A DNA stretch of 64,000 bases from Alphaproteobacteria bacterium (lineage in GTDB: Bacteria > Pseudomonadota > Alphaproteobacteria > UBA828). The number at the start of each line of letters is the position of its first letter. Positions within the stretch are counted from its first letter, which is position 1. Below, one piece after another: positions 15,002-19,314 of this stretch. The stretch spans positions 2,880,001 through 2,944,000 of the forward strand of contig OZ243972.1 in the NCBI GenBank assembly GCA_965214705.1, written 5' to 3'. Both the position numbers and the translations under genes were made by a program. The notes beneath the pieces were generated by a model. That model was not told the origin of the DNA. It made no database searches and saw only the letters and a program-made list of their open reading frames with translations.

Positions 15002-15043
15002 AAGGGTTGGGCAGGCTCTCTCTCGAGAGCCTGCCCAACCCTT
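15002..15043. repeat. Perfect 19-bp-stem hairpin at the 3' end of the IS91-like element
   Basis: AAGGGTTGGGCAGGCTCTC-TCTC-GAGAGCCTGCCCAACCCTT. Confidence 0.9.
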
Positions 15044-16459
15044 TTGAACGAAGCCGCGGGCCACGAGAGGCGAAGTTGAGCTATGTGGAAAGTGCGCTGA
15101 TGTCAGCGTCAGGCGGCATCCACCGGCAGCAGAGTTGCGCATAAAATCGACGCTCGCGCCGGTCTTTCGGCAGGCATGCGGGCGCACGCTGCGAGGACTG
15201 AGCGGGGTGTGAGCCGAGGGCTGTCAGCCCGGCTCAAGCGGAGACAGGTTCGGTCGTGCGTCGGCGCTTTGGCGCCGTTGCGCGGGGCCGAAGCGAGCGG
15301 GCGTCTCACGGTTTCCCCCTGTGGGTCGGCGGCAGCGCCGGCGGGCCGCGCGTCGAGCGGGGCTCATGGCGGCGGCGGATTTCGCGGACGAGGCGCATGA
15401 CGCCGCCGCAGTGGGGGCAGGCCACGGGCGCGGTGCCGATCTCGGGCTCTTCGTCGGGCTCGGCCCGAGCGCCGTCCACGCTTCCCTCGGGGGCGGCGCA
15501 GCCGAGGGCGCCGAGAGCCTGGCGTGCTCTCTCCAGCGTGCTGGCGCGGCAGCCGTTGGCGAGGATGCCGAAGTAGCGAATGCGGTGCATGCCGTCCGGC
15601 AGGACGTGCCTCAGGAAGCGGCGGATGAACTCGTCGGCGCTCACGGTGGCGATGCCGTAGCGCGGCTTTCTCTGCCCCGGCGCCTTGGGCTTTCGGTGGC
15701 GGAAGGAGACCGTCTCGCCGTCGAAGGAGACGATGCGGCTGTCGGAGATGGCGATCCTGTGCGTGTAGTGCGAGAGGTACCGGAAGACCTGCTCAGGCCC
15801 GCGGAAGGGCCGCTTGGCGTAGACCACCCAGTCCCTGGCCCGGGCGGCGGCAAGCGTGGCGTGGAACTCGCCGGGATTGGCGAGGTGGGCGAGGGTGCCG
15901 TGGAACTCCAGGTCCCCCCGGCCGTGGGCGCGGGCGAGCTCCTCGAGGAAGAGGCGGCGGAACAGGCTGCCGAGGACCTTGACGGGGGCGAGGAAGGTGG
16001 TGCTCCCCGTCTTCCACTCGCCACTGTCTACGTCGAAGCCCGCGTTGGGCACGACCACGTGCAGGTGCGGGTGGAAGCGGAGCTTCTGATCCCAGGTATG
16101 GAGGACCGCGGTGCCGCCGATGCGCATGCCGCCGTGGCGGGGATCGGCGGCGATGGTGCGCAGGGTCTCGGCGACGGCCCGGAAGAGGATGTCGAACACC
16201 ACCCTGCGGTTGCAGAAGGCAATGGCGGCAACCTCCTTGGGCAGGGTGAAGACCACATGGAAGTAGGGCACCGGCAGGATGTCCCCGGCGCGCTCCTCGC
16301 TCCAGAGGTTGGCGGCGAGACCCTGGCAGGTGGGGCAGTGGCGGTTGCGGCAGGAGTTCTTATGAGCTCTCTCCGCAAGGCCCGGCTTCATCTACGTCAA
16401 TGGCATTCGCAATCTCTCCACTCGAATCCGCGGCCGATGTCCAGGCAGAACGTCGTTTC

Positions 16460-16680
16460 CACGCAGCGATCCGCCACGCTGCTCAGCTCTTATCCGGTTC
16501 GGAACTCCGGCGCTTGCCGGCTCCGTGACCCCAATACCGCATCCAAGCGGTGGTGACGTTCCGGGAGGCGGGACCCATCTGTAGAACGGTGCCAAGCGGC
16601 GACCCAACTCTTGCCCGGTCACACGCCTTGCCCGGCATCCTCCGCGGCCGCGTCCGACCACGTCGGAACCTCCTGTATTT
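16460..16680 (-). ncRNA. Predicted bridge/seek RNA in the IS1111 right end (boundaries approximate)
   Basis: Two internal loops with guide-like segments: GAGTTG and GTTCTACA match the target; GGTAT and ATAAGAG match the circle junction; each pair flanks a hairpin. Confidence 0.72.
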
Positions 16681-16703
16681 TCCCGTTCGTTCGGCCGGTG
16701 CCC

Positions 16704-17900
16704 TCAGGAGACGATGGCGCCCTCAGGCACCAGTCCTTGGGTGGCATAGCGCCACAGCGCGATCAGCAGCTTGCGCGCGACCCCCACGATCGCCCGCTTC
16801 CTCGCTCGCCGGTCCCTCCCGCCACCGGCATCCCTGGCGACGTAGGCGTGGAACCACTTCGTGATCGCGCTTTCCGGTTGCAGCTTCAGCCAGCGCCAAG
16901 CCATCTGGATCATGTGCTTCCTGACATGCGAGGGGCCGGCCTTGCTGATGCCAAGATCGTGGTCGACATCTCCGCTCGCCCACGGCACCGACGTCAACCC
17001 GGCCCAGCTGCCCAACTCCCGGCGATTGCGGAAGTCCCGATAGAACACCTCGCCAGCCAGCAGTGTGGCGTCATTGAGGCCGATGCCATGGATGCGCGTA
17101 AGCGCCGCGATCATCGCCGTCCCGTCACGATTGGTCGCGTCCTGGGCTTTCCGGCCAGCCTTCAGCAGGGCCCTCTTCTCGGCCTCGATCATCTCGATAT
17201 GCTCCTCAACCAGGCGAAGCATCCCCACCGCCCTCTCAATCTCTGCCCGCGCACGCGGCGGCAACGGCGCCCCATAGCCCGTCCGCGCGGTCGCGAGGCG
17301 TTCGAGGAAGTCCGGCTTGCGCGGCGCCAGATCGAAGATGCCGTGCAACTGCAAGAGCCCTTTGATCCGGTTGTTGACGCGGGTACGCTCGCTGATCAGC
17401 GTGTCCCTCTCGCGCAGCAGGCGCTTGGCATCCTCCTGGTCCACATCGGGCACGCGCACCCAGGACATGGCCTCCGAATCGCCTTGGTCCCATGCCTTCA
17501 GAGCCCGAACCATCCTCCTCGCGTCGATACGGTCGGTCTTTTTCTTCTTGGCGCGCCGGTTCACCCGCAGGCTCGCCGGATCGTTCATGAAGATATCGAT
17601 CTCCGCGTCACGGCGCTCGATATCGCGGGCAAGCCAGAACCCCTCGTAGCCCGCCTCGTAGGTCAGCATCACCCGAGGACGGGCGCCGAGCTCCCTCGCC
17701 ACCCGTTCCCGCACCGACCCGACGAGATCCAACAGTCCCGCCGTGTCGGCAGCAGCCAGTGTGTGGATGCTGATGCTGCCACCCGAGGCATCCGGGCAAT
17801 GCACGCCAACGATCCACGATTTGAGGCTGATCTCCACCGCGACATAAATCGTGCTACTACTTGCGCCTGTCAGCGCGGTCGTGTCTGGACCATCCGACAT
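16704..17900 (-). CDS. IS110-family DEDD recombinase/transposase
   Basis: YVAVEISLKSW, YEAGYEGFW, KTDRIDA, GIG, WASG (catalytic Ser), ISKAG, ARKLL motifs. Confidence 0.93.
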   Translation of the reverse strand: MSDGPDTTALTGASSSTIYVAVEISLKSWIVGVHCPDASGGSISIHTLAAADTAGLLDLVGSVRERVARELGARPRVMLTYEAGYEGFWLARDIERRDAEIDIFMNDPASLRVNRRAKKKKTDRIDARRMVRALKAWDQGDSEAMSWVRVPDVDQEDAKRLLRERDTLISERTRVNNRIKGLLQLHGIFDLAPRKPDFLERLATARTGYGAPLPPRARAEIERAVGMLRLVEEHIEMIEAEKRALLKAGRKAQDATNRDGTAMIAALTRIHGIGLNDATLLAGEVFYRDFRNRRELGSWAGLTSVPWASGDVDHDLGISKAGPSHVRKHMIQMAWRWLKLQPESAITKWFHAYVARDAGGGRDRRARKRAIVGVARKLLIALWRYATQGLVPEGAIVS

Positions 17901-18203
17901 CCGTCCACTCCGTTGTTGACGATTCCGCTCGGAGAGAAGGTGCTGGCCTTCTCTCCGAGCTTGTCTAACCGCCAGAATCGATTCGGTGCCACCGTGCTCA
18001 TGGTATCTGAAGAGCGGATGCTCGCGCCCGCAGCCCTCGCAGGCGTACATGTGGCCGCCGAGCACGGCGGTGCGGCACGCCTCGATGGCGCCCATGACCT
18101 TGAGCCGGGCGGCGTCGATGCGCCCTTTGTGGCGCTCACGGAAAGCGGCGCCGGCGCGGCGGAAGATCTCCGCCACGCCCGCGCGTTCGGCCTCCACGCG
18201 CCG

Positions 18204-19082
18204 TCAGTTGCGCAACGCTGCGAAGCCTGAGATCGGGTGGTCGAGGCCCTCGAACATCTTGCCGGTGACGCGGGCGTAGTGACGGGTCGTGTTCGCGCTT
18301 CGATGGCCGAGCATGTCCCGGATCACCTCGATATCGCCGCCGCGCTCGAGGAGATGGGTCGCCGCCGAATGGCGCAGGCAATGGAAGGTGTAGCTGCGGT
18401 CGAGCTCGGCAATGTCGCGCGCCCTCCTGAAGGCGGCCTGCAAGGTCTCCGTTGCGATGGGCCTGTCGAGCGAGACGCCGTAGAAGAGCCAGCTCGTCGG
18501 ACGCGGCCAGATGTTCCTGTAGTAGACGCGCAAGTAGTGGATGACGATGTCCGGCAACGGTGCCATTCTCTCGGTGCCGCCTTTGCCGGAGGGGATGTGC
18601 AGCAGCTTCTTCTCCGACAGGATGTCGCCGACCTTGATGGCCAAGGTCTCGGAGATGCGGAGCCCGCCGCCATAGCCGGTGACAATGGCAGCACGGTGGC
18701 GGAGGTCGGGTGTCGCAAGGATGAGGTGCTCGACCTCCTGCTCCGACATGTAGCGCGGCAGCTTGCCGGGCTTCTTGCGGGAGCGCAGGCCGGCGACATG
18801 GTCAGGCCAGCCGAGTGTGTCGATGTAGAGGAAGTTCAGCGCGGCGAAGGAGACGTTGGTCGTGCCCGGACTGAGCCCCTTGTCGATCCGCCCCAGGTAC
18901 CACTGGCGCACCTGCTCGGCGTCGAGCTCGTCCGGCGAGGCGTCGTAGTACCTGGCCAGGTTCTTGATCTCGCAGATGTAGGCCTTGGACGTGCTCGCGG
19001 CCAGATTGGCGATGCGGAGCTGCTCCTCCATGCGCTGGCGAAGAGGGGTGACGGTGTTCGTGTCGCACGCGGTCCCGGTCAT
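18204..19082 (-). CDS. Tyrosine recombinase/integrase of the IS91-like element
   Basis: TPLRQRM N-terminus, GLRISE, KGG, HCLRHSAATHLLE, LGH, YARV; RBS AGGGAG upstream of ATG 19082. Confidence 0.93.
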   Translation of the reverse strand: MTGTACDTNTVTPLRQRMEEQLRIANLAASTSKAYICEIKNLARYYDASPDELDAEQVRQWYLGRIDKGLSPGTTNVSFAALNFLYIDTLGWPDHVAGLRSRKKPGKLPRYMSEQEVEHLILATPDLRHRAAIVTGYGGGLRISETLAIKVGDILSEKKLLHIPSGKGGTERMAPLPDIVIHYLRVYYRNIWPRPTSWLFYGVSLDRPIATETLQAAFRRARDIAELDRSYTFHCLRHSAATHLLERGGDIEVIRDMLGHRSANTTRHYARVTGKMFEGLDHPISGFAALRN

Positions 19083-19314
19083 TATCGATCTCCCTGGATC
19101 GCGACGGCGCGCCGCCGGACCGATCCGGCGACGGTCCGTCGCAGGGGTCGATACTAACCACTGGTGATCGGGAGGCTGCTGGGGATCCGCCACCCGACGG
19201 GCGGAGCGCCACTGACGCAACCGGGAAGCGAACGCACAGAACAAACGGCACCCGCGACGCCTCGGAAATGAATGAACTCTACGCCGCTAACTCCGCGTAG
19301 CGGCTTCGTTCAAT

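Follow-up and report, generated by a model that had tools for sequence, protein, structure and literature searches.

The window, a stretch of 64,000 nucleotides from an Alphaproteobacteria bacterium (contig OZ243972.1), contains an IS91-family element that is interrupted by a second mobile element, an insertion sequence (IS) of the IS110 family, and the choice of target by this IS is the subject of the present analysis. On the minus strand the IS, 1650 bp long, reads from 18008 to 16359 as AGATACCATGAGC...GAGCTCATAAG; the left flank ends in ...CATCCGCTCTTC at 18009 and the right flank opens with AACTCCTGCCGC at 16358. Its ends follow the layout AGATACC-ATGAGC...GCTCAT-AAG, with a corresponding left end of AGATCCT and ATGAGGC in relatives. 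The transposase gene is flanked by 345 nt of non-coding DNA downstream versus 108 nt upstream, and the structured region that bears the predicted guides occupies 16475-16666 (Table 1).

The surrounding host element, whose extent was found by an outward walk over 12 empty copies, encodes a Y2 HUH-type transposase with an N-terminal zinc-binding domain, which places it in the IS91 family. Its product matches NF033538 (IS91 family transposase) at 326 bits against a cut-off of 125 and Y2_Tnp at 185 bits, and the Zn_Tnp_IS91 domain is divided between the two host fragments (profile positions 1-48 and 52-90). An intact transposase open reading frame (ORF) of 413 amino acids (aa) is seen in an empty host copy. 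The IS breaks this frame at codon 63/64, within the zinc-binding domain, between HPLF and NSCRNRHCP, in agreement with an earlier note on this DNA (hereafter the initial annotation) that the host transposase is inactivated. We conclude that the inserted element is very probably an autonomous IS110-family IS of IS1111-type layout, carrying a two-loop bridge/seekRNA that is aimed at the zinc-binding codons of IS91-family transposases.

Insertion of the IS is site-specific. A blastn search of the 7.9-Mb genome with the 1650-bp IS returned 26 high-scoring segment pairs, corresponding to 21 elements and 2 fragments. Eighteen of these segment pairs are full length, 14 at 99.9% identity or above and one each at 96.7, 96.0, 92.1 and 86.2%, and three more copies are split by a 2752-bp insert. 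Nineteen of the 21 elements are placed between ...CCGCTCTTC and (A/T)ACTCCTGCC. Both flanks are available for 91 host copies, of which 71 have an unbroken CCGCTCTTC|AACTCC, 18 are occupied, one has an additional AG and one is without AAC; in a 19th occupied host the left flank is broken by another element. The empty site that had been deduced from the window is therefore real. Contigs of four out of 23 runs (X8, X9, X10 and X19) were compared with the window. Empty and filled forms occur together in contigs of X8, X9 and X10 (three other studies), and in those of X9 and X10 position 16357 is joined to 18008. Empty sites for three different targets show that the insertion is simple. None of 12 host copies with a changed site (CTCTCC twice, ...CCTACC twice, CTTTTC, CTGTTC|AACTCG twice, CTTTAC|AATTCC three times, the additional AG and the missing AAC) is occupied, which at an occupancy of about one fifth is expected about 8% of the time and is not significant.

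We compared the non-coding region of the IS with these flanks. On the minus strand, GAGTTG (16610-16605), the hairpin GGTCGCC-GCTT-GGCACC (16604-16588) and CCGTTCTACA (16589-16580) lie where the initial annotation had placed them, and its view that GAGTTG is part of a guide stands. The arm is longer than proposed, however, at 9-10 nt, with ACTCTTGCC as the ideal right half: GGCAAGAGT(T) pairs with (A)ACTCTTGCC, and the ideal site is therefore TCTAC-A-ACTCTTGCC, reading Tyr-Asn-Ser-Cys. Because the right guide is 9-10 nt, the local site differs from the ideal one by two mismatches and not by one, as had been assumed; these are TTC for TAC (A opposite A in the left arm) and TCC for TCT (A opposite C in the right arm). 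Accordingly, the 5' arm matches the local flank ACTCCTGCC at 8/9 and the 3' arm matches the local TCTTC at 4/5. The AGA(T) that follows TCTAC in the 3' arm equals the first bases of the IS left end. The 10-mer of the initial annotation taken alone occurs 10 times in the genome and is never occupied, so both arms are needed at full length.

The proposal that the ideal site reads Tyr-Asn-Ser in IS91-like genes found support in other genomes. We scanned metagenome contigs with an exact 19-mer of guide and scaffold that carries no target information and obtained five stretches, three of which were dropped as chance matches in unrelated low-GC genes. The other two are true IS copies (91% identical, with the same 5' arm), and both are in IS91-like genes, in hosts that are 78-85% identical to the local host. 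Their insertion site is CCGCTCTAC|AACTCCTGCC, that is CTCTAC|AACTCC, which encodes HPLY|NSCRNRHCP; since these hosts read TAC, the predicted codon exists where expected. Among 19 distinct IS91-family sites sampled across the class, 15 encode YNSC, in keeping with the suggestion that this is the usual motif and that the FNSC of the local host departs from it.

Alignment of the four diverged genome copies shows that the arms change together with the target. In the 86% copy, blocks are altered at exactly the two arms (GGCAAGAGT to AATAGGCGT and TCTAC to TCCAT), and this copy sits at GTCCAC|ACGCCTAT in an IstB gene, matching its own arms, with an empty version of the site elsewhere in the genome. 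The 96.7% copy (C3:428447) lies antisense in an IstB gene at ...GGCACGGGCAAGAGTT|GG, in the Gly-Lys-Ser codons of the Walker A motif. There the 5' arm matches the flank at 9/9, or 10/10 with the adjacent scaffold G, compared with 8/9 at IS91, which would be expected if the guide had been shaped for a target such as the IstB Walker A codons and IS91 were a tolerated off-target, dominant through the roughly 90 copies on offer. A paralogue whose right-half match is complete at a single-copy site and 7/9 at its transposon-gene sites points in the same direction. However, the left arm matches the IstB site at only 2/5, just one copy is found there and an identical IstB site is still empty, whereas both arms match IS91. 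Moreover, the left arm reaches 5/5 in the metagenome hosts, counting one G-U pair, IS91 is used by 19 copies here and 2 elsewhere, and the exact right half TACAACTCTTGCC exists in an IS91 relative (L086). We thus regard an off-target origin of the IS91 insertions as very unlikely.

The correspondence between arms and flanks extends to relatives from this genome and others, which share about 50-57% protein identity with the reference (88% for L021). All have a common scaffold of TG(R)CCG, 9 nt, 2 nt, a short hairpin, CCG, 6 nt and AGA(T/A)GGG. In 18 lineages, on average 6.9/9 nt of the 5' arm agree with the reverse-complemented right flank, against 3.85/9 in 304 non-self pairings, with the best of five offsets taken in observed and control pairings alike. 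For the 6-nt 3' arm and the left flank, the values are 4.75/6 (16 lineages) and 1.81/6 (238 non-self pairings). The observed match was reached by 0/10,000 permutations for each arm, indicating that both loop arms are guides, as the initial annotation had held; the tabulation of flanks that it had recommended likewise came out in its favour, with same-guide relatives in IS91-like genes and covariation of guides with flanks across 16-18 lineages. Several apparent guide mismatches are G-U pairs, and the effective left guide is 5 nt because the first base of the 6-mer seldom matches. The right flank starts with A in 16 of the 18 lineages, or 17 once the right end of L047 is set to a second CATAA match. 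Since the right flank and the IS both begin with A, one A is common to donor and target. In most relatives the common stretch is AG; in the reference element, with target AA and donor AG, it is only A, and a 2-nt AG core analogous to the CT of IS621 was rejected as a requirement.

A two-loop RNA structure is conserved in the non-coding region. The RNAalifold consensus of 17 sequences contains 38 pairs, with 97.5% of cells paired versus 26-51% with slid partners, and compensatory changes at 12 pairs versus 1-3 in slid controls; 0/500 shuffles reach the observed values, although the structure was derived from the same alignment used to score it, which favours it. In this consensus, the two target arms form opposite sides of one internal loop, and one of the kept pairs of the hairpin between them changes from CG to UA in 3 relatives. 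As would be expected of a bridge/seekRNA, the predicted structure presents two stretches that match opposite target strands, overlap where the insertion takes place and vary along with the target. No Rfam family matches the non-coding region at E values up to 5-10, where only chance-level hits of unrelated families appear. The donor loop would contact the ends of the IS itself: GGTATT is the complement of the left-end bases GATACC, one of the pairs being G-U, and ATAAGAG repeats in the same sense ATAAG of the right end and AG of the left end. The R of ATAA(R)AG in the donor loop equals the R of CATAA(R) at the right end in 17/17 relatives, and a further sequence of this loop, GG(T)AT(T/C), is complementary to left-end bases. 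The assignment of GGTATT is weak, as the sequence shows a single change in the tree and falls partly within a predicted stem. A second candidate for a right-half guide, GGAGTTCC (16509-16502), was dropped, as it lies in a conserved stem of the donor loop and does not vary with the target.

Table 1 Features of the IS, its predicted RNA and its host in the window.
Feature	Position	Strand	Remarks
Host IS91-family element	15005..19305	minus	2651 bp; 4301 bp with the IS inside
Tyrosine-recombinase ORF of the host	18204..19244	minus	Phage_integrase match
Host Y2 transposase gene, split	18009..18197 and 15306..16358	minus	
Left target half, TCTTC (Leu-Phe codons)	18009..18013	minus	In the host gene
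Right target half, AACTCCTGCC (Asn-Ser-Cys-Arg codons)	16349..16358	minus	In the host gene
Whole IS	16359..18008	minus	Simple insertion without target duplication; 18 full-length blastn matches with identical ends
Left end of the IS	17996..18008	minus	7-bp terminal extension AGATACC (18008-18002) and subterminal repeat ATGAGC (18001-17996)
Right end of the IS	16359..16367	minus	Subterminal repeat GCTCAT, then 3-bp extension AAG; mirrors the left end
Transposase/recombinase gene	16704..17900	minus	398 aa and stop; NF033542, Pfam, profile against PDB
3' non-coding region, predicted bridge/seekRNA	16359..16703	minus	Consensus structure over 17 relatives
Target loop, 5' arm GGCAAGAGT+TG	16605..16615	minus	Complementary to the top strand of the right half-site (CA)ACTCTTGCC
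Inner hairpin between the target-loop arms	16588..16604	minus	Three pairs kept across 17 relatives
Target loop, 3' arm TTCTAC+AGAT	16577..16586	minus	TCTAC in the same sense as the left half-site
Donor loop region	16487..16538	minus	GGTATT 16538-16533; ATAAGAG 16493-16487

The transposase belongs to the IS110 family. The 398-aa protein matches the NCBIfam model NF033542 ('IS110 family RNA-guided transposase') at 174.4 bits (cut-off 140) and the Pfam domains PF01548 (DEDD_Tnp_IS110; 33 versus 29) and PF02371 (Transposase_20; 45.8 versus 21.3). A single-sequence phmmer search with the transposase against PDB sequences gave no match, and a 9-sequence profile matches the PDB transposases of ISCro4 (5.5e-10) and IS621 (8.7e-08). 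Residues E82, D123, D126 and S309-G310 are invariant in 9 relatives; together with E23, these would by their position correspond to a putative DEDD tetrad and Ser-Gly pair.

Within the family, the IS1111 identity put forward in the initial annotation holds for organisation and not for dimensions. The longer non-coding region with the predicted RNA lies downstream of the transposase gene, the ends have 7-bp left and 3-bp right extensions, and the target is not duplicated. In contrast, the subterminal repeat ATGAGC/GCTCAT has 6 perfect bp (7 bp, as ATGAGGC, in the relatives at 55% identity), and the transposase is 398 aa long (384-412 aa in relatives) against 330-350 aa in IS1111 elements. In the portions of two 2024 papers on which we draw, IS1111 repeats are given as usually 11-13 bp (PMC11187229) or 7-17 bp (PMC11208160). 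Because of the short repeat and the long transposase, membership in IS1111 is borderline, and since layout, guide order and extensions are IS1111-like, we assign the element to the IS110 family and call its organisation IS1111-type.

That IS110/IS1111 elements choose their targets by RNA guidance was demonstrated in those two papers (PMC11187229, PMC11208160), and the parts used here allow a comparison with both groups. The IS1111-type seekRNA elements ISEc11, ISKpn4, ISPst6 and ISPa11 (Siddiquee et al. 2024, PMC11187229) likewise have their non-coding region downstream of the transposase gene, with a complement of the top strand followed by a match to the bottom strand that overlap at the insertion point, and 7-bp left and 3-bp right extensions beyond the subterminal repeats with no added bases. 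ISEc11 and ISXne4 also offer a precedent for natural retargeting between close relatives (PMC11187229). The seekRNA elements differ from ours in repeat (11-13 bp versus 6-7 bp) and transposase length, as given above, and in their targets, which are a short linear site, attC ends and REP sequences, whereas here the target is a transposase coding motif (PMC11187229). IS621 and ISCro4 (PMC11208160; PDB 8wt6, 9t56) share with our element the plan of a two-loop RNA, here predicted, whose target and donor loops each pair with both strands; their DEDD domain and C-terminal Ser-Gly domain have putative counterparts in our transposase, and both proteins are matched by the clade profile. Unlike in our element, their RNA lies in the left end with the reversed order of guides, and the core common to donor and target is the dinucleotide CT, whereas here it is demonstrably one A (PMC11208160).

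On this basis, we propose the following mechanism. The target-loop 5' arm (GGCAAGAGT, then TG) would pair with the top strand of the right half-site and the 3' arm TCTAC with the bottom strand of the left half-site, where the adjacent AGA(T) would correspond to the first IS bases. The donor loop would match the abutted right-end/left-end junction of an excised circle. Held by the guide RNA, the putative DEDD/Ser recombinase would insert the circle between TTC and AAC without duplication, crossing over at the single A common to target and donor. The guide spells the (Leu)-Tyr-Asn-Ser-Cys of the IS91 zinc-binding motif, so the IS lands in and cuts IS91-like transposase genes, and the two mismatches of the local site (Phe in place of Tyr, TCC in place of TCT) would be tolerated. 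The predicted RNA would be made by the element and bound by its transposase. Passage through a circle and the position of the crossover are presumed, and the IS may benefit in ways that go beyond a multi-copy, slowly evolving landing site. It may also hitch-hike on the host element, as the initial annotation suggested.

Several observations weigh against an RNA-guided element aimed at IS91. The local target has two guide mismatches, and mismatches were poorly tolerated in the IS621 screens reported in the consulted part of Durrant et al. 2024 (PMC11208160); 71 identical targets are still empty; and the 86% copy is one A short at the right junction compared with the simple model. The first catalytic position is E23 (VAVEIS) and not D in 7/7 relatives that cover it, and the lineages used for the permutations are mutually related and not fully independent. 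On the side of the RNA, the structure is predicted from comparison of relatives. The single-sequence fold of 16480-16660, at -78.3 kcal/mol, has a z of -0.33 against shuffles, is not better than these and is therefore uninformative. Contigs from an RNA library (X19) contain relatives of host and IS at about 89% identity, possibly DNA carry-over; their summed depth is higher over the non-coding region than over the gene, although contig depth cannot rank parts of a gene.

The absence of a directly observed RNA and the unexceptional single-sequence fold are what one would see if the protein itself read the site and the complementarity of the non-coding region to the flanks were incidental. We find such protein reading scarcely credible, since transposases that are 88% identical (the reference versus the 86% variant and L021) use unrelated sites, and in their non-coding regions only the arm blocks have changed, matching the new flanks. 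The family is, moreover, experimentally RNA-guided in the portions of the two papers cited (PMC11187229, PMC11208160).

A further question is whether the site was targeted repeatedly. One ancestral insertion could have been followed by spread of the composite, through copying of IS91 in trans or through homologous recombination or gene conversion into sister copies, so that repeated targeting would not be needed. The 300-bp flanks of most hosts show 100% identity, 14 IS copies are at least 99.9% identical, the commonest host haplotype holds 6 of the 18 occupied hosts and 1.3 kb of homology is present on each side of the IS, all of which would suit such a history; most hosts are in fact identical over 2.65 kb, and among those a spread by gene conversion is possible and counts against repeated targeting. 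However, the 18 occupied hosts are spread over 11 of 30 host haplotypes (1400 bp), 4 of which are found among empty copies as well. Identity to the main type is as low as 76-86% in one occupied host, two occupied hosts have private single-nucleotide polymorphisms 12 and 17 bp from the junction, and diverged IS variants (96%, 92%) occupy the same site, which is also filled in the approximately 80%-identical hosts of the two metagenome contigs. Composite spread would in addition leave the arm-flank match and the covariation unexplained, and we consider it very unlikely, favouring repeated RNA-guided insertion into IS91.

A single-protein search of the genome contigs gave only 3 loci, and a class-level protein search gave matches in at least 7 of 401 genomes at E <= 1e-80, an undercount given that only 4 candidates were scored per genome. 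The protein clade is large, with at least 5863 proteins at E <= 1e-30 among 8000 candidates scored, and those that are named are called only 'IS110 family transposase'. Six of 18 guide lineages are inside transposon ORFs with above-threshold domains, namely IS91 twice, IstB, an IS1380/701-like DDE gene, another IS110-family gene and an IS3-type rve gene (at WVADITY|VPT). One more is in an ISAs1-like gene below the cut-off, four are within 0-160 nt of the end of a transposon ORF, three adjoin ordinary genes and four could not be assigned. The occurrence of relatives with other guides in IstB, IS3-type, IS110-type and IS1380/701-like transposon genes is new here, and the unusual target choice is probably clade-wide. 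Two relatives from other genomes, L047 and L059, each follow a co-oriented transposase gene of another IS110-family element, at distances of 118 and 160 nt, which would place them in the 3' non-coding region of that element.

We tentatively suggest, as a possibility that the evidence does not yet favour over its opposite, that a widespread clade of IS110-family elements of about 395 aa comprises hyperparasites of other transposons, guided to codons that their victims can hardly alter (zinc-finger Cys, Walker A motif and first catalytic Asp of DDE enzymes) and thereby provided with a multi-copy, slowly evolving target common to different hosts, each insertion killing a transposase, and that they may act as a brake on IS expansions such as the 90-copy IS91 bloom seen here. 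A full-text literature search found no report of IS110/IS1111 elements targeting IS91 or transposase coding motifs, although cases may be held in the supplements of PMC11187229 and PMC11208160; the supplements and code repository of the former contain target logos for more than 300 IS.

Other mobile elements also exploit transposons as targets. IS1111-group elements reportedly target the inverted repeats of Tn21-type transposons or of IS1384; judged by title, those sites are non-coding terminal repeats, unlike the coding motif in a transposase ORF that is used here. Mobile group II introns that home into transposase genes are known to prefer IS genes, and they resemble our IS in being RNA-guided and in using the gene of another transposon as a multi-copy, conserved landing site. 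They differ in that they retrohome by reverse transcription and splice out; because the IS does not splice, it kills the host gene.

The locus thus provides an internally controlled case of natural retargeting in one genome, consisting of a guide, 19 insertions, 71 unused targets, two off-family insertions and a retargeted sibling. Together with its relatives it supplies about 18 guide-target pairs, including tolerated mismatches and G-U pairs, for an uncharacterised scaffold of IS1111-type layout, which are useful for deriving engineering rules. It indicates that an RNA-guided IS is able to select conserved coding motifs of other transposons as its insertion sites, and such parasitism of one transposon on another may limit IS blooms.

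The copies of the IS show additional features. Three of them (G000:C2:518994-523403, C3:687404-691813 and C3:1713791-1718200) are interrupted by the 2752-bp element, which has GTAAGCGGTA... ends and 8-bp duplications (IS positions 1095-1102, 1119-1126 and 1330-1337); we take its ends to resemble those of IS66. With this element in the IS and the IS in the IS91 host, there are three levels of nesting. At G000:C1:1873053-1874866, a copy is directly followed by a repeat of its own last 165 bp, with 1814 bp between the host flanks. A 13-bp perfect inverted repeat, CTCGGAGAGAAGG...CCTTCTCTCCGAG (window 17928-17960, minus strand; IS positions 49-81), lies in the left end upstream of the transposase start and is kept in 5/5 aligned variants.

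The junctions of the IS preserve reading frames. Upstream of the transposase, its frame continues without a stop codon through the left end and joins the host ORF in phase, so that the resulting open frame measures 497 aa (16704-18197, minus strand), and this continuity is also present in both metagenome IS91 copies. In the 86% copy the frame is likewise continuous with IstB, and the gene caller gave a 660-aa IstB-transposase protein (P0002). At the right end, an ATG located 33 nt ahead of the junction shares its frame with the 350 host codons that remain (15306-16391, minus strand). Because the left end forms an open frame continuous with the ORF of the victim, the recombinase of the reference sub-clade could be translated from the expression signals of its victim; with two independent target genes, a meaning of this continuity is suggestive only.

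At least 91 near-identical copies of the IS91-like host are scattered over the genome, of which they make up about 3%. Two copies that are otherwise identical differ at the insertion point, with the extra AG at G000:C1:3005632 and the lost AAC codon at C2:15360; these alleles may be excision scars or may destroy the target. In 4 host copies, a 4121-bp insert is found at GAGCA|TCCGC, 10 bp upstream of the IS site (for example L102, G000:C1:791409-795529), and its junction is seen at window position ~18019 in run X10. The insert has two reverse-transcriptase-like ORFs antisense to the host gene and matches group II intron D1-D4 (RF02005, 172 bits). As this intron lies 10 bp from the IS site, a second, unrelated RNA-guided element uses the same zinc-finger region, making it a hotspot for both. 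The host 3' end carries a hairpin, GGGTTGGGCAGGCTCTC...GAGAGCCTGCCCAACCC, which Rfam mis-scores as mir-224.

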